In this document: piece after piece, positions 1 through 4,033 of the stretch
How the letters are laid out: each line of letters opens with the position of its first letter
How positions within the stretch are numbered: position 1 is the first letter of the stretch
Source of the DNA: a virus
Taxonomy: Duplodnaviria > Heunggongvirae > Uroviricota > Caudoviricetes
DNA: 4,033 nucleotides
IMG/VR virus record: IMGVR_UViG_2695420699_000010
Reading direction: 5' to 3' (one strand)
The notes under the pieces: generated by a model
The model's input: only the letters and a program-made list of their open reading frames with translations
What the model was told of the DNA's origin: nothing
Database searches by the model: none
Position numbers and translations under genes: made by a program

Positions 1-168
1 CATGACAAAGTCATCGGGCATTATCTGAACATAAAACACTATCAATAAGTTGGAGTCATTACCGAGGCTATCTGCCTCAGGCATGAACACCAAAAGGCAG
101 ATAGAGAAAAGCCCCAGTTAACATTACGCGTCCTGCAAGACGCTTAACATTAATCTGAGGCCCAATCT

Positions 169-381
169 ATGTCTCACAAATGTAGGTTAGCCTCTTACGT
201 GCCGAAAGGCAAGGAGAAGCAGGCTATGAAGCAGCAAAAGGCGATGTTAATCGCCCTGATCGTCATCTGTTTAACCGTTATAGTGACGGCACTGGTAACG
301 AGGAAAGACCTCTGCGAGGTACGAATCCGAACCGGCCAGACGGAGGTCGCTGTCTTCACAGCTTACGAACCTGAGGAGTAA
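169..381 (+). CDS. mok-like in-frame N-terminal extension of the hok reading frame (70 codons); possible regulatory/coupling ORF
   Basis: ATG at 169 preceded by GAGG (157-160) with 8-nt spacing; same frame and same stop as the hok ORF. This mirrors the Mok/Hok arrangement as I recall it for chromosomal hok loci. Whether it is translated is not determinable from sequence. Confidence 0.4.
   Translation: MSHKCRLASYVPKGKEKQAMKQQKAMLIALIVICLTVIVTALVTRKDLCEVRIRTGQTEVAVFTAYEPEE
226..381 (+). CDS. hokD: Hok/Gef family type I toxin (small membrane-active peptide, 51 aa), HokD/RelF-like
   Basis: ATG 226 with AAGGAG (212-217) 8 nt upstream; TAA stop 379-381. Product MKQQKAMLIALIVICLTVIVTALVTRKDLCEVRIRTGQTEVAVFTAYEPEE has the Hok signature: hydrophobic N-terminal helix followed by the conserved TRKxLCEV.R...EVAxF.AYE core. 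Symbol assigned from recalled similarity to E. coli HokD/RelF, not from a search. Confidence 0.85.
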   Translation: MKQQKAMLIALIVICLTVIVTALVTRKDLCEVRIRTGQTEVAVFTAYEPEE

Positions 382-388
382 GAGACCA

Positions 389-410
389 GGCGAGGGAGAA
401 ATCCCTCGCC
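389..410 (+). other. Perfect 9-bp stem with GAAA tetraloop immediately 3' of the hok stop (RNA stability or fold-back element candidate)
   Basis: GGCGAGGGA (389-397) / GAAA loop (398-401) / TCCCTCGCC (402-410), exact reverse complement. No U-tract follows, so it is not itself a classical terminator. Confidence 0.45.
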
Positions 411-449
411 ACCTCTCATGTGTCAGGCATCCTCAACGCACCCGCACTT

Positions 450-476
450 AACCCGTTTCGGCGGGGTTTGTTTTTT
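450..476 (+). terminator. Intrinsic terminator closing the hok transcription unit
   Basis: Stem AACCCG (450-455) pairing with CGGGTT (462-468, one G-U pair), followed by a T-rich tract TGTTTTTT (469-476). Lies about 70-95 nt past the hok stop. Confidence 0.55.
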
Positions 477-548
477 CCTGGCATTCTGGTTTACAATTCG
501 CACGCCAGCCTGAACAACTGGCACCTGCTGCGCCAGCAGAGACAGCCG

Positions 549-827
549 ATGGCGCACGATACCAAATTACACAATTCTGATGATTCTGCCGTCTTTGCCA
601 GCAGGCGCGGACGGTGTTTTCACGCATTCAAATCTGACTGGTACCAGCATCCCCCATGCACTGAAGAACAGGCCGAATGGCTCATTCAGTGTTACCGCAG
701 GCGCGGATGCGAGGTTAAAAAAGCCCTTAGCCTCGACTACCGTCACTGGATAATCTCCGTCAGGCCCCCTTACTCCGAACGGCCACCGCGTCCGTCCCGC
801 ACATTCCAGCAACGGATCTGGAGGTAA
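549..827 (+). CDS. Small prophage protein of unknown function (Rem-like by position), 92 aa
   Basis: Six-frame ORF 420-827. ATG 549 is preferred as start because the GTG-420 extension would span the terminator at 450-476. Stop TAA 825-827 overlaps the next gene's start. Gene order hok, small ORF, DUF968 recalls hokD-rem-ydfU in E. coli Qin prophage, but this is from memory. Arg/Pro-rich composition and no clear SD lower confidence. Confidence 0.5.
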   Translation: MAHDTKLHNSDDSAVFASRRGRCFHAFKSDWYQHPPCTEEQAEWLIQCYRRRGCEVKKALSLDYRHWIISVRPPYSERPPRPSRTFQQRIWR

Positions 828-828
828 T

Positions 829-1878
829 GTGCGGGTATTACTTCGACCTGTTCTGGTGCCGGAACTCGGTCTGGTTATCGTTAAGCCAGGCCGTGAATCA
901 ATGTCAGCATTCCATAACGGCAGAATACTGGTGGAGCCGGAACCAAAAAGCATGCGCGGCCTGCCATCCGGAACCGTTCCTGCCGTTCGCCAGCCGCTGG
1001 CGGAAGACAAATCTCTGCTGCCATTTTTCAGCGACGAGCGGGTAATTCGTGCCGCTGGCGGTGCCGGTGCACTGTCTGACTGGTTATTGCGTCACGTTAA
1101 ATCCTGCCAGTGGCCTCATGGTGACTATCATCACAGTGAAATCGTCATACATCGTTACGGCACCGGCGCGATAGTGTTGTGCTGGCACTGTGACAACCAG
1201 CTGCGCGACCAGACATCAGAATCACTCGATCAACTTGCTCAGCAGAATCTGGTTGCCTGGATGATTGACGTCATCCGTCACGCAATAAGCGGTACGCAGG
1301 AGAGGGAGTTATCGCTGGCCGAATTATCCTGGTGGGCGGCCTGCAATCAGGTGGTGGATGCACTACCTGAGGCAGTAGCGCGTCGTTCGCTGGGATTACC
1401 AGCGGAAAAAATCCGCTCCGTATACCGTGAGAGTGACATCGTACCGGGAGAACAGACAGCCATCAGCATACTGAAGCAGCGCACAAAAAATATTGCGCTG
1501 CCACTTCACGTCCACCAGCAACAAAATCCATCACAGAAAAAAACGGTTGTCAGTATCGCCGTTGATCCGGAGTCTCCTGAATCGTTCATGAGGCGGCCTA
1601 AACGTCGCCGTTGGGTTAATGAGAAATACACGCGCTGGGTAAAGACACAGCCGTGTGCGTGTTGTGGTAAGCCAGCTGACGATCCGCATCACCTGATTGG
1701 TCATGGTCAGGGGGGGATGGGAACAAAGGCCCACGATATTTTCACGCTACCGTTGTGCCGGGAACATCACAACGAACTTCATGCTGACCCGCTGGAGTTT
1801 GAGAAAAAGTACGGCTCTCAGGTTGAGTTAATTTTTCGTTTTCTTGAGCACGCCTTTGCAACTGGCGTGCTCGGGTAA
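829..1878 (+). CDS. DUF968-like prophage protein (YdfU-like) with C-terminal Cys/His HNH-like zinc-binding motif, 349 aa
   Basis: Long uninterrupted ORF. GTG 829 with GGAGG (820-824) 4 nt upstream and overlapping the upstream stop (TAATGTG); alternative start ATG 901 (MSAFHNGR...). C-terminus QPCACCGKPADDPHHLIGHG...LPLCREHHNELH (nt ~1651-1790) is a CxCC...HH...C..HH pattern. Position between replication genes and rusA/Q is typical of nin-region genes in lambdoid phages. Confidence 0.85.
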   Translation: MRVLLRPVLVPELGLVIVKPGRESMSAFHNGRILVEPEPKSMRGLPSGTVPAVRQPLAEDKSLLPFFSDERVIRAAGGAGALSDWLLRHVKSCQWPHGDYHHSEIVIHRYGTGAIVLCWHCDNQLRDQTSESLDQLAQQNLVAWMIDVIRHAISGTQERELSLAELSWWAACNQVVDALPEAVARRSLGLPAEKIRSVYRESDIVPGEQTAISILKQRTKNIALPLHVHQQQNPSQKKTVVSIAVDPESPESFMRRPKRRRWVNEKYTRWVKTQPCACCGKPADDPHHLIGHGQGGMGTKAHDIFTLPLCREHHNELHADPLEFEKKYGSQVELIFRFLEHAFATGVLG

Positions 1879-1890
1879 AAGAGGTGACTG

Positions 1891-2250
1891 ATGCTCATAG
1901 ATTTGGTTTTACCTTACCCGCCGACGGTGAACACTTACTGGCGACGCCGTGGCAGCACATATTTTGTATCAAAAGCCGGGGAGCGTTATCGCCGGGCAGT
2001 GGCGCTTATTGTTCGCCAGCAGCGACTGAAATTAAGCCTGTCCGGACGGCTGGCAATAAAAATTATTGCAGAGCAACCGGATAAGCGCCGCCGTGACCTG
2101 AACAATATTCTGAAAGCACCGCTGGATGCGCTGACGCACGCGGGGTTGTTAATGGACGATGAGCAGTTTGATGAAATCAATATTGTACGTGGCAAGCCAG
2201 TATCTGGTGGACGGCTGGAGATAAAAATTACAGAGGTGGGGTGTGCATGA
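1891..2250 (+). CDS. rusA: Crossover junction endodeoxyribonuclease RusA (Holliday junction resolvase), 119 aa
   Basis: ATG 1891 with AAGAGG (1878-1883) upstream. Product carries the RusA hallmarks: N-terminal LPYPPTVNTYW, central PDKRRRDLNNILKAPLDALTHAGLLMDDEQ (catalytic Asp cluster), and C-terminal GGRLEIKITE. These parallel E. coli RusA (...[30 protein letters not shown]...GGRLELTITE) as recalled. Confidence 0.93.
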   Translation: MLIDLVLPYPPTVNTYWRRRGSTYFVSKAGERYRRAVALIVRQQRLKLSLSGRLAIKIIAEQPDKRRRDLNNILKAPLDALTHAGLLMDDEQFDEINIVRGKPVSGGRLEIKITEVGCA

Positions 2251-2936
2251 ATAACCAGTATTTACAGTTTGTTCGTGAGCAACTCATGATTGCCACTGCG
2301 GATCTCAGTGGGGCGACAAAAGGTCAACTGGAAGCCTGGCAGGAAAATGCCCTGTTCGATACAGGGCGTTACAGACGCAAAAAAATTCGTTACCGCGATG
2401 AGGTAACCGGAAAAATGATCACGCGGGATAATCCCCCAATCCCGGGTAAACAATCACTGGCGAAAGGCTCATCAATTGCCCTGGTCAGTCCTGTTGAGTT
2501 TGCAACATCATCGTGGCGGCGTACCCTTCTGGAACTGGAAGAACATCAGAAGGCGTGGTTGTTGTGGTGTTATGGCGGAAACATTTGCTGGGAGCATCAG
2601 ATCGCGATAATGCAGTGGGTGTGGAATGAATTTAAAACTCAGTCTGGTACCAGAAAAATTGCAGTGAAAACGCTGGAGCGTGTGAAGAAGTTGATCTGGC
2701 TGGCGGCACAGGATGTCAGAGGATGGGTTACCGGGTGTGAGGTCTACCAGAGACAGGAGCTTGCCAGACTGTGTGGAGTTAAGCCTGATAACTGGAGCCA
2801 TAATTATGCGAACTACTGGCGTGAGATGTGCGATATTTTTAAGCGCCTCGATAGAGAATCCTTGATTTGCTCCGTGAAAATAAGAGCGCAACAAAAAGCG
2901 ACCTTTTCACGACGAGATATTGCAAAAGTCAATTAA
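2247..2936 (+). CDS. Putative late-gene antitermination protein Q (lambdoid Q-type), 229 aa
   Basis: ORF immediately after rusA; ATG 2247 overlaps the rusA stop (ATGA), with GAGGTG (2234-2239) upstream; alternative GTG 2241. Followed within 90 bp by a promoter-like element and a strong intrinsic terminator, the canonical Q / pR' / tR' layout. Assignment is mainly by synteny and size; I could not confirm the Q family by motif. Confidence 0.72.
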   Translation: MNNQYLQFVREQLMIATADLSGATKGQLEAWQENALFDTGRYRRKKIRYRDEVTGKMITRDNPPIPGKQSLAKGSSIALVSPVEFATSSWRRTLLELEEHQKAWLLWCYGGNICWEHQIAIMQWVWNEFKTQSGTRKIAVKTLERVKKLIWLAAQDVRGWVTGCEVYQRQELARLCGVKPDNWSHNYANYWREMCDIFKRLDRESLICSVKIRAQQKATFSRRDIAKVN

Positions 2937-2948
2937 ATCGCGTATGTT
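2920..2948 (+). promoter_or_regulatory. Candidate late promoter (pR'-like) overlapping the 3' end of the Q gene
   Basis: TTGCAA (2920-2925), 17-bp spacer, TATGTT (2943-2948); predicted start near 2955. A second -10-like TATAAA sits at 2952-2957. Sequence-only prediction. Confidence 0.3.
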
Positions 2949-2997
2949 TCGTATAAATCTGATATTTTGCCTATTTTGTACGCGATGGCAAAGTAAG

Positions 2998-3025
2998 AAA
3001 AAAACTGCCGCCAGGCGGTTTTTTT
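2998..3025 (+). terminator. Strong intrinsic terminator (tR'-like) downstream of Q
   Basis: A7 (2998-3004), stem CCGC (3008-3011) / loop CAG / GCGG (3015-3018) with flanking G-T closure, then T7 (3019-3025). The A-run/T-run symmetry makes it potentially bidirectional. Confidence 0.7.
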
Positions 3026-3071
3026 ATGTCCGAAAATCGCGTCAGTACAGTAAACGCGCTGGCGGCGGTGA

Positions 3072-3366
3072 ATACCGGTCTTTCAGCTTGCTGGCTTTTT
3101 CGACAAGAGTTATTGGTGTGTCACGTTAACCGGAAAAAGGAAAGTTTGAGAAACGCGATCTGGCACAGGCGGTTATTAATGCTGCCTACCTGGTGGCCTG
3201 TGCAGATGGTGAATGTGAGGCTTCCTAGAAATCGAAGATCGAACAGGTACTGCGTAATCAGCCTGCGCTGTCCGCGTTTACGTCAGAAATAATTGAGCCG
3301 GAAGAGCGCAAGGTGCTGGAAGAGATTGCCGGTGTTCTGGGTCTTCGTCTGGAGAATCACCTGTGA
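3072..3366 (+). pseudogene. Decayed TerB-like (tellurite-resistance TerB domain) gene: frameshifted, with an in-frame amber stop
   Basis: One frame gives ...AGFFDKS... (3072-3149). The next frame gives GKFEKRDLAQAVINAAYLVACADGECEAS, then TAG (3226-3228), then KSKIEQVLRNQPALSAFTSEIIEPEERKVLEEIAGVLGLRLENHL, stop 3364-3366. The FFDK start, the hydrophobic-A-x-ADG-x-x-x-x-E core and the C-terminal acidic-E..IA..LG pattern resemble TerB as I recall it. No single intact frame exists. Confidence 0.4.
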
Positions 3367-3494
3367 CGGTAAAACTGCGCCTGACTGTGGCTGCACTCCT
3401 GCTGTTTCTGGTGGTGATGGTGGATTTCACCAGCAGAATCATGTCGGTGCTGGCGGATGGGGTGCTGGTCTGCGGCATTGTGGTATTGCTGTAG
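3363..3494 (+). CDS. Hypothetical 43-aa hydrophobic (membrane) peptide, GTG start overlapping the upstream stop
   Basis: GTG 3363 overlaps TGA 3364-3366 (GTGA); GGAG (3351-3354) 8 nt upstream; stop TAG 3492-3494. Product VTVKLRLTVAALLLFLVVMVDFTSRIMSVLADGVLVCGIVVLL is almost entirely hydrophobic, consistent with one or two transmembrane helices. It is absent from the supplied ORF track, most likely because of its short length. Confidence 0.35.
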   Translation: MTVKLRLTVAALLLFLVVMVDFTSRIMSVLADGVLVCGIVVLL

Positions 3495-3711
3495 CCGGTG
3501 ATAAAAAGAAACAGCCTGCATAATGCTTGATTTTTTTATTTGCTGTTTATTAAAAACACTTCTGCATGGTGAATCCCCCTGTGCGGAGGGGCGACTGGTG
3601 TAGGTAGCATTTATTATGTTATAGGCAAGCCGACGCGGGTTCAGTGACACCGGCTGAATTCACCGGGAGGCACCCGGCACCATGCAAGAAAAAGAATGTG
3701 CATGCAAACAT

Positions 3712-3736
3712 GCCCCTCTCCGGAGGGGCTTTTTTT
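3712..3736 (+). terminator. Intrinsic terminator (+ strand)
   Basis: GCCCCTC (3712-3718) / loop TCCG / GAGGGGC (3723-3729), a perfect 7-bp GC-rich stem, followed by T7 (3730-3736). Confidence 0.65.
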
Positions 3737-3742
3737 ATGGGT

Positions 3743-3768
3743 AAAAAATGCCCGAATGGGTTCGGGCA
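3743..3768 (-). terminator. Intrinsic terminator (minus strand), convergent with the + terminator at 3712-3736
   Basis: On the + strand: A6 (3743-3748) then a perfect 8-bp stem TGCCCGAA (3749-3756) / loop TGGG / TTCGGGCA (3761-3768). On the minus strand this reads hairpin followed by UUUUUU. Confidence 0.5.
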
Positions 3769-3803
3769 ATAGCATGAGATACTGATATTGTTGTGTTGTT
3801 ATC
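3743..3803 (-). ncRNA. Candidate small RNA (~60 nt) on the minus strand, antisense to the late-region leader
   Basis: Minus-strand promoter-like element: -35 TTGCGC (+ coordinates 3834-3839), 18-bp spacer, -10 TAAAAT (+ 3810-3815). Predicted transcript AUAACAACACAACAAUAUCAGUAUCUCAUGCU is A/C-rich and unstructured, then ends at the minus-strand terminator hairpin plus U6 (3743-3768). Purely predicted. Confidence 0.25.
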
Positions 3804-3829
3804 GTGTGGATTTTAACCAGGGTTTATCA

Positions 3830-3856
3830 GGCTGCGCAACTGCGTGGCCTTTTTTC
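3830..3856 (+). terminator. Possible intrinsic terminator (+ strand)
   Basis: Stem GGCTGCGC (3830-3837) / loop AACT / GCGTGGCC (3842-3849), 8 bp including two G-U pairs, followed by TTTTTT (3850-3855). Overlaps the proposed minus-strand -35. Confidence 0.45.
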
Positions 3857-3864
3857 ATTTCTTG

Positions 3865-3907
3865 GGCTGTAGTCCCCGAGTGTCATTCAGGCTTCCGGAC
3901 TACAGCC
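3865..3907. repeat. Perfect 11-bp inverted repeat with 21-nt spacer in the leader of the downstream late gene
   Basis: GGCTGTAGTCC (3865-3875) and GGACTACAGCC (3897-3907) are exact reverse complements. No U-tract on either side, so it is not a terminator; candidate protein-binding site or RNA processing/translation-control stem. Confidence 0.6.
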
Positions 3908-3955
3908 AGCCCACTCCATATCTGATTTAATACACTATCCCGGCCGGGAGGAATA

Positions 3956-4033
3956 ATGACATTTAAACATTATGATGTTGTCAGGGCGGCGTCGCCGTCA
4001 GACCTTGCGGAAAAGCTGACACACAAACTGAAA
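3956..4033 (+). CDS. 5' end of a late-region gene (small conserved phage protein, possibly DUF1737-like); truncated by the window edge
   Basis: ATG 3956 with GGGAGG (3946-3951) 4 nt upstream; open to the end of the window. Product begins MTFKHYDVVRAASPSDLAEKLTHKLK. The family assignment is a recollection, not a search result. Confidence 0.55.
   Translation, partial: MTFKHYDVVRAASPSDLAEKLTHKLK

Follow-up and report, generated by a model that had tools for sequence, protein, structure and literature searches.

A hokD/hokW-type hok/mok/sok locus in a lambdoid prophage that has lost its promoter and most of its tac element to IS1

The window, the whole stretch of 4,033 nucleotides analysed here, carries a hok/mok-type type I toxin locus at its left end. 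The locus occupies its usual site in a lambdoid prophage, where rem, DUF968/ydfU, rusA and Q follow downstream. The DUF968 protein is encoded at positions 829-1878. The window is an entire draft contig, CYEQ01000077.1 of assembly GCA_001283285.1, recorded in two samples; it therefore begins within a repeat, inside the insertion sequence IS1. The features of this left end, with what each call rests on, are as follows.

1-63, plus strand: right end of IS1, co-oriented with hok (63 of 63 positions match both annotated IS1 ends of locus L001)
1-48, plus strand: last 15 codons and stop codon of insB, within the IS1 right end
64-225, plus strand: hok mRNA leader without its first 8 nt, GGGUGCUU (Rfam RF01794 match, alignments)
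64-67, plus strand: remnant GAGG of the tac element; the rest of the 12-nt tac, GGGUGCUUGAGG, is gone (alignments to uninterrupted alleles)
109-115, plus strand: ucb, or anti-SD box, AAGCCCC (partner of model positions 1-8, Rfam consensus structure)
107-177, minus strand: Sok-type antisense antitoxin RNA (sokW misc_RNA of phage 933W, L004 1543-1613, transferred by alignment)
184-212, minus strand: sok promoter, -35 TTGCCT (212-207), N17, -10 TAACCT (189-184) (sequence scan; identical in 933W and Sp5)
169-381, plus strand: mok-type ORF of 70 aa, in frame with hok (ORF list; SD GAGG at 157-160)
226-381, plus strand: hok toxin ORF of 51 aa (Pfam PF01848 HOK_GEF; SD AGGAG at 212-216)
389-410, plus strand: 3' stem-loop of 9 bp with a GAAA loop, arms GGCGAGGGA and TCCCTCGCC (sequence, covariation)
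431-443, plus strand: fbi (fold-back inhibition) element CCTCAACGCACCC, 5' partner lost (minimum free energy (MFE) folds of L002 and L007)
450-476, plus strand (452-476 in the scan): intrinsic terminator of the hok mRNA, a hairpin and T-run (terminator scan)

The original prediction, made from the sequence alone, described a hok/mok-type toxin locus that carries a 3' stem-loop and a terminator of its own, and this much is borne out. The toxin ORF encodes a small (~50 aa) membrane toxin of the Hok/Gef kind and matches the HOK_GEF profile over its full length (82.9 bits, E 1.2e-23); the leader matches RF01794 with 84.3 bits. The protein is identical to HokD of E. coli K-12 at all 51 positions. 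In thousands of E. coli genomes RefSeq calls this same protein (WP_000813254.1) HokD. Its expression is toxic, and hok genes are reportedly enriched in prophages (bioRxiv 10.1101/2025.08.07.668861).

The hok frame is nested in the mok frame, as had been proposed. The mok frame also has the SD that was claimed for it: GAGG precedes the mok ATG by 8 nt, and AGGAG the hok ATG by 9 nt. The mok product is identical to the annotated MokW of 933W at 63 of 70 positions. Translation of the two overlapping frames may be coupled. Mok is in frame with hok in hokC/gef, too; in plasmid R1 it is out of frame.

Downstream of hok, the GNRA-capped stem is perfect, as the original prediction had it. Its pair 393-406 shows one compensatory change, from A-U to G-C, in 933W and in a Rac-type prophage; among the five loci compared, only this hairpin has a compensatory pair. 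In plasmid R1 the last stem-loop of the processed mRNA stabilises the transcript against 3' exonucleases (PMC9841398). By analogy, 389-410 is likely the last hairpin of a 3'-processed hok mRNA and its shield against such exonucleases. The predicted terminator is present as well.

At its 5' end the locus meets IS1. The terminal inverted repeat of IS1 ends (...GGAGTCATTACC) at nt 63, and nt 1-63 translate into the C-terminus of InsB (...HDKVIGHYLNIKHYQ, then stop). Thousands of matches to these nucleotides, at an identity of at least 99%, are annotated as IS1 transposase. Uninterrupted hok loci align to the window from nt 64 and never earlier. Two assemblies, L007 and L008, carry the locus without IS1 and have 3 mismatches against window 64-4033 (3,970 nt). 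Directly 5' of the equivalent of nt 64 they read TTGCGG-N16-TAGAAT-N7-GGGTGCTT. The same motif recurs in four more distant relatives (L002, L001, phage 933W and the Rac-type prophage). Every uninterrupted relative has TAGAAT(N7)GGGTGCTT at this place, and the promoter TTGCGG-N16-TAGAAT is present in L002 as in L007 and L008, with IS1 in its place in the window. Hence, the junction and the uninterrupted alleles together show that the hok promoter is gone, along with 8 of the 12 tac nucleotides at the 5' end. By these alignments IS1 sits 8 nt inside the putative hok transcript, and the promoter and the first 8 nt are lost.

The right junction is short-read assembly evidence, and the left end of IS1 lies outside the contig. 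The same IS1/hok junction was found in none of 5,426 complete E. coli genomes, and in no plasmid, GTDB representative genome or JGI metagenome contig searched. The insertion looks recent because its flank is nearly identical to L007 and L008 (3 SNPs in about 4 kb). If the insertion was simple, IS1 should be present in full, at 768 bp, with the left flank TTGCGG-N16-TAGAAT-N7-GGGTGCTTGAGGCTATC, and there should be a 9-bp target duplication, with GAGGCTATC repeated to the left of IS1.

One of the three differences from L007 and L008, T466G, falls in the terminator. It weakens the stem, and the hairpin has a predicted energy of -7.7 kcal/mol in the window against -11.2 kcal/mol in L007. We considered whether the 3' UTR changes at 417, 456 and 466 reflect decay after inactivation, and rejected this: 417 and 456 are also changed in L007 and L008, and only T466G is private to the window.

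No substitute for the lost promoter is apparent. A scan for promoter-like sites found no sigma-70-like promoter on the plus strand of window 1-230, and the window holds no constitutive hok promoter of its own. We also considered and dropped a hybrid promoter spanning the end of IS1: for the outward TTGGAG at 50-55, no -10 that could serve is spaced 16-18 nt away.

The leader that remains is still recognisable as a structured RNA. RF01794 matches window 53-231 on the plus strand (E 1.8e-18; gathering score 59), and the conserved leader structure is present. In uninterrupted alleles the model scores 120.1 and 121.7 bits and begins exactly at GGGTGCTT. The score of the window is about 36 bits lower because helix 1 is replaced by IS1 bases, and this first helix is flagged with non-canonical pairs. 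The original prediction had proposed a search with the hok and Sok families of Rfam. Rfam has no 'hok' family; the other half of the proposal gave the match just described, on the sense strand. The last three positions of RF01794 ('sok antitoxin') align with the hok AUG. The model as built is the hok mRNA leader, which is why it matches the sense strand; the real Sok is a partial reverse complement of it. Weak Rfam matches to CsrC (382-425, minus strand), isrK, AgrB, ceN48 and Phe_leader lie far below their gathering scores and were taken to be chance.

When the intact mRNA (L002 and L007) is folded to its MFE, the partner of nt 1-12 (GGGUGCUUGAGG) is CCUCAACGCACCC, the equivalent of window 431-443. 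This tac/fbi pairing of the two ends, a defining trait of hok mRNAs, is lost in the window: the full-length MFE is -152.7 kcal/mol, compared to -169.1 kcal/mol for the intact mRNA. The duplex of the 5' end with fbi falls from -21.1 kcal/mol (intact) to -5.3 kcal/mol (window), and that with ucb from -9.9 to -0.3 kcal/mol. Thus the window has lost the tac element, a 5' end that pairs with fbi in the closed form and with ucb in the open form, and its ucb and fbi, both present, are both orphaned. In the MFE folds ucb pairs with CUGAGGC. From the Rfam consensus structure and the folds, ucb is predicted to pair with tac when the mRNA is translatable and with the mok SD region when it is closed. In the window, ucb and the mok SD region are still paired in every predicted fold.

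The folding calculations have clear bounds. For the 3'-processed intact RNA the MFE fold itself lacks the tac/ucb stem, and a fold in which this stem is enforced lies only 0.8 kcal/mol above it. The accessibility of the mok SD, calculated from the partition function, takes the same values in the intact and the truncated RNA and does not separate the alleles. The tac/fbi helix is invariant across the five loci by pair counting and hence provides no covariation evidence.

How much the tac element matters has been established for plasmid R1. In a saturation mutagenesis of that locus, any substitution at tac G4, C5 or T6 abolishes toxicity; the substitutions keep the closed form from switching to the open one, and Hok protein is drastically reduced (PMC9841398). 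The R1 mutants are non-toxic because the mok SD stays sequestered by ucb.

The antisense strand is in better condition than the original prediction supposed. It had seen only a weak minus-strand promoter at about 184-212 and no clean minus-strand terminator, and had left the antitoxin status open. The promoter is indeed weak in that only 7 of 12 consensus positions match, and it is the homologue of the sokW promoter. The terminator, however, had been overlooked: a hairpin at 163-111 followed by CUUUUCUCU (-32.5 kcal/mol, z -5.6; all 200 shuffles less stable) lies where the SokW RNA of 933W is annotated. By homology and predicted structure, a complete sok-type gene is present, which settles the status that had been left open.

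In the putative Sok RNA, a single-stranded 5' tail of 14 nt (177-164) is followed by the long hairpin (163-111), and from 110 to about 100 the 3' end is rich in U. The 5' tail is complementary to the mok start region, and the promoter lies inside mok. Promoter and RNA are identical between the window and the intact alleles L007 and L008, and Sok is probably still made from the window allele. The published hokW probe YO-597 has exactly the minus-strand sequence of window 214-185. As we read their sequences, primers YO-421/422, used for a promoter-less sokW construct, replace exactly this -10. The Sok 5' tail and the target patch vary between copies of the locus, which suggests that Sok specificity groups exist.

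The closest characterised relatives are the hokW/mokW/sokW loci of phage 933W and of Sp5 (VT2-Sakai). They share 93% DNA identity with the window across the leader, the ORFs and the 3' UTR up to fbi. Their sok promoter does not differ at all and their Sok hairpin hardly, and both loci belong to lambdoid prophages. In 933W all three genes mokW, hokW and sokW are annotated, with mok in frame with hok as in the window. The hokW-sokW pair is an experimentally validated type I toxin-antitoxin system, which depends in part on RNase III and Hfq, and it aids phage release after induction (PMC8621323). The reports of Hok toxicity and of its neutralisation by Sok concern the identical HokD protein and this pair.

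The relatives also differ. Phage 933W keeps its own promoter and the complete 5' end, whereas in the window both are cut off by IS1. The two Hok proteins end differently, FTAYEPEE against FVDYESEK. Mok codons 2-4, the target of the Sok 5' tail, differ, as does the terminator region. The 933W locus lies near the right end of the phage, while that of the window lies upstream of rem-DUF968-rusA-Q.

The locus of plasmid R1 is built from the same elements in identical order: tac, ucb, mok SD/dcb, mok, sok, hok, 3' hairpin, fbi and terminator. Its sok promoter is also inside mok, and the Rfam leader model covers both loci. Yet sequence similarity is distant, and R1 carries out post-segregational killing for a plasmid, whereas the copy in the window is chromosomal, prophage-borne and 5'-truncated.

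K-12 hokD (relF, on prophage Qin) shares with the window the identical toxin, the hok SD, the 3' stem-loop, an fbi-like sequence and the terminator, and the downstream genes rem, ydfU and Q. In K-12 the whole leader (tac, ucb, mok and sok) has been lost to relBE, and hokD is read within that operon. In contrast, the window keeps everything from +9 on; IS1 has cost it no more than the promoter and +1 to +8. An alignment to K-12 1,644,900-1,645,700 accordingly shows homology from about window 212 on only (~212-476). The original prediction was right that relE is missing upstream, and right that K-12 hokD is embedded in relBE while this copy is not. The relBE-hokD arrangement is absent from the window because IS1 lies upstream, not because the locus is autonomous.

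Following the R1 paradigm, an uninterrupted copy would work as follows. The weak promoter TTGCGG-N16-TAGAAT would give an mRNA of about 421 nt. Its tac element, at the 5' end, would pair with the 3' fbi, and the mRNA would be closed and untranslated. Trimming from the 3' end toward the 389-410 hairpin would remove fbi, and the freed tac would then pair with ucb and expose the mok translation start. From here on there are two fates: either Sok binds and the duplex is cleaved, or mok and hok are translated and Hok damages the inner membrane.

In the window copy, IS1 splits the locus from its promoter and deletes 8 of the 12 tac nucleotides, leaving sok and the Hok ORF untouched. There would be little or no transcription of hok. 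A read-through transcript without tac would have neither the tac/fbi lock nor the tac/ucb activation.

We therefore read window 64-476 as a type I hok/mok/sok locus of the hokD/hokW kind whose promoter and tac element have been cut by IS1 and whose toxin arm is disarmed, with a probability of about three in four. By extrapolation from R1, the toxin arm is most likely disarmed because promoter and tac are lost; the silence of hok, the continued expression of Sok and the consequences for folding are what we infer, while the identities of the elements, the IS1 junction and the loss of promoter and tac can be read directly from the alignments. Neither the protein, the locus type nor the mode of inactivation is new; all three are known.

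Several observations pull against a disarmed toxin arm. IS1 is co-oriented with hok, and transcripts could read through into the locus from the transposase promoter of IS1 or from the hok promoter that IS1 has displaced. Loss of the tac/fbi lock could open such a transcript more rather than less, and the modelled accessibility of the mok SD is the same for both alleles. The rules of the mechanism were taken from plasmid R1, and its locus bears only a distant sequence resemblance to this one. The junction itself rests on short reads on the right and lies outside the contig on the left.

The first two of these observations lead to the alternative that survives best, that the pair is still active. 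Chimeric IS1-hok read-through transcripts would be unlocked and open to Sok and to ribosomes, and the cell would need Sok continuously. The mok SD, the hok SD, both ORFs and the Sok target are all intact, as this alternative needs. However, the transposase promoter of IS1 is weak and IS1 is strongly polar. Moreover, tac mutants of R1 are non-toxic with their mok SD held by ucb, and in the window ucb and the mok SD are paired in every fold. A precedent in its favour is K-12 gef/hokC, which is transcribed and regulated by antisense RNA despite the disruption of fbi by IS186 (PMC3562002). On balance we consider an active pair unlikely, at odds of roughly one to several.

A second alternative concerns the half of the locus that IS1 left alone. 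The retained sok could act as an orphan antitoxin: the window would then hold a recent natural deletion allele, lacking tac and promoter, with a live sok that neutralises same-target hok mRNAs of other prophages in the cell or of incoming phages of the hokW type, in an anti-addiction role. Neither promoter nor RNA differs from that of intact alleles, and related loci are many, with a median of 11 matching places per E. coli genome (for window 1-520, IS1 copies included). The variation of the 5' tail and target patch between copies fits this role, too. But the retention of sok needs no selection, given how recent the insertion looks. We regard the orphan role as doubtful, somewhat more so than an active pair. 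It is compatible with the disarmed toxin arm rather than opposed to it. If it were true, selection would have favoured IS1 insertions at the very start of the hok transcript as a way to disarm prophage toxins.

Much less survives of the original view, in which the locus is self-contained: a hok/mok unit in full working order, equipped with a promoter and a terminator, whose antitoxin may be lacking. Both SDs are intact, as are the ORFs, the 3' stem-loop and the terminator, and to that extent the description 'apparently intact' fits the toxin ORF. It does not fit the expression apparatus, from which the promoter and tac are lost. The supposedly complete transcription unit of about 400 nt amounts to 413 of about 421 nt, without the hok promoter. 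Nucleotides 1-63 are IS1, and the promoter and first 8 nt of the near-isogenic alleles are absent; no plus-strand promoter exists in 1-230 to replace them, and the antitoxin gene is complete. Unless the junction is an assembly error, it refutes this view, which we consider very improbable. A K-12-type hokD (relF), read as the third gene of a relBEF operon, can be dismissed despite its identical Hok and the shared rem, ydfU and Q, since K-12 shares only ~212-476 and the window keeps the leader from nt 64 with IS1, not relE, upstream.

For annotation the disarmed toxin arm has a practical consequence. Any pipeline would call the ORF a HokD toxin, yet this allele lacks the promoter and the R1-type 5' switch element and is not to be counted as an active toxin-antitoxin system. 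Beyond correct annotation, its importance is slight. The IS1 allele and the alleles of L007 and L008 form a natural control pair for the tac requirement in the hokD/hokW subgroup. This subgroup is far less studied than R1.

The locus adds one more case of insertion sequences associated with chromosomal hok loci. In K-12 gef/hokC, as in the window, an insertion sequence adjoins an intact hok ORF and breaks the pairing between the 5' and 3' ends of the mRNA. There, IS186 sits on the downstream side and reportedly disrupts fbi (PMC3562002). Here, the insertion is upstream, and what IS1 takes away is the promoter and tac. The two insertions have thus taken opposite halves of the same helix: fbi in gef/hokC and tac in the window.

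The association between IS1 and the hok locus is recurrent. In other E. coli lineages IS1 is also found near hok, at sites that differ from the one in the window. In the Qin-like prophage L001, about 200 bp separate the end of an IS1 copy (3351-4063) from the 5' end of hok, which lies downstream of it. In L006, from ETEC O6:H16 strains, one IS1 (1851-2563) lies about 700 bp upstream of hok and a further one, from 3712 onward, follows the hok terminator after about 30 nt. The insertion of the window itself, 8 nt into the hok transcript, was absent from all 5,426 complete E. coli genomes searched. The window (L009) is the complete 4,033-bp draft contig CYEQ01000077.1 of GCA_001283285.1 and is recorded in two samples. 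This contig starts within IS1 and ends within a DUF1737/SASA-type gene, and both ends are probably assembly breaks induced by repeats.

Over about 4 kb, the window differs from the uninterrupted alleles L007 and L008 at only three positions: 466, 3362 and 3384. The first of these, T466G, is private to the window and affects the terminator stem of hok on its 3' side, where it reduces the stability of the hairpin from -11.2 to -7.7 kcal/mol and sets the stem apart from the U-run.

Upstream of the terminator, the Tyr47 codon of Hok (TAC, followed by G; 364-367) lies in a UACG context that is unpaired in the predicted folds. In hokD mRNA, as in hokB, A-to-I editing by TadA is reported to recode a tyrosine to the second cysteine, which is needed for the disulfide (bioRxiv Hok survey, 10.1101/2025.08.07.668861). 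The UACG at 364-367 would be the site that corresponds to this reported editing.

The most variable patch of the locus is found at the start of mok. When we compare the window with its equivalents in L001, L004 (the phage 933W record), L005 and L006, variation is concentrated in Mok codons 2-5 (172-182), while the flanks are conserved. The N-terminal variants are MSHKC, MNGKS, MLNTC and MLDTC, plus a Rac variant. It is exactly this patch that the antisense RNA Sok targets with its single-stranded 5' tail. Such variation at the target of the tail suggests, from sequence comparison, that the prophage copies fall into separate Sok/hok specificity groups.

Directly 3' of the hok terminator lies a further reading frame:

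549-827, plus strand, 92-aa ORF without a Pfam match

It ends one base short of the start of DUF968 (829). K-12 Qin and a Rac-type record carry rem in the same position, which in the Rac-type record is annotated as 'prophage antirepressor Rem'.

Four features follow the Q gene:

2953-3027, plus strand, strong terminator-like hairpin (AAAAAACTGCCGCC-AGGCGGTTTTTTT) just 3' of Q
about 3128-3365, TerB-family gene remnant that contains an in-frame TAG (about 3226-3228) and matches Pfam TerB only marginally (E 0.006)
3538-3742, plus strand, sRNA STnc100 (strong Rfam match, 154.1 bits, E 1.2e-35)
3743-3804, minus strand, anti-GcvB sRNA AgvB (strong Rfam match, 96.5 bits; 62 of 62 positions identical to the model consensus)

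The hairpin also yields sub-threshold Rfam matches to AgrB (24.8 bits) and isrK (19.2 bits), which probably reflect only the shape of a terminator.

In contrast to the window with its remnant, relatives such as H26 and L002 carry an intact TerB of 141 aa. They also have about 2 kb more between the Q region and TerB, encoding a DNA methyltransferase, tRNA-Ile and tRNA-Arg. The shortened arrangement is common to the window, L007 and L008. Since the latter two lack IS1, it is older than the IS1 event.

AgvB directly adjoins STnc100 on the opposite strand, and a weaker AsxR match (43 bits, below the Rfam gathering threshold) overlaps it. The strong AgvB match identifies, at the level of sequence, a predicted EHEC-type anti-sRNA that the prophage carries downstream of Q.
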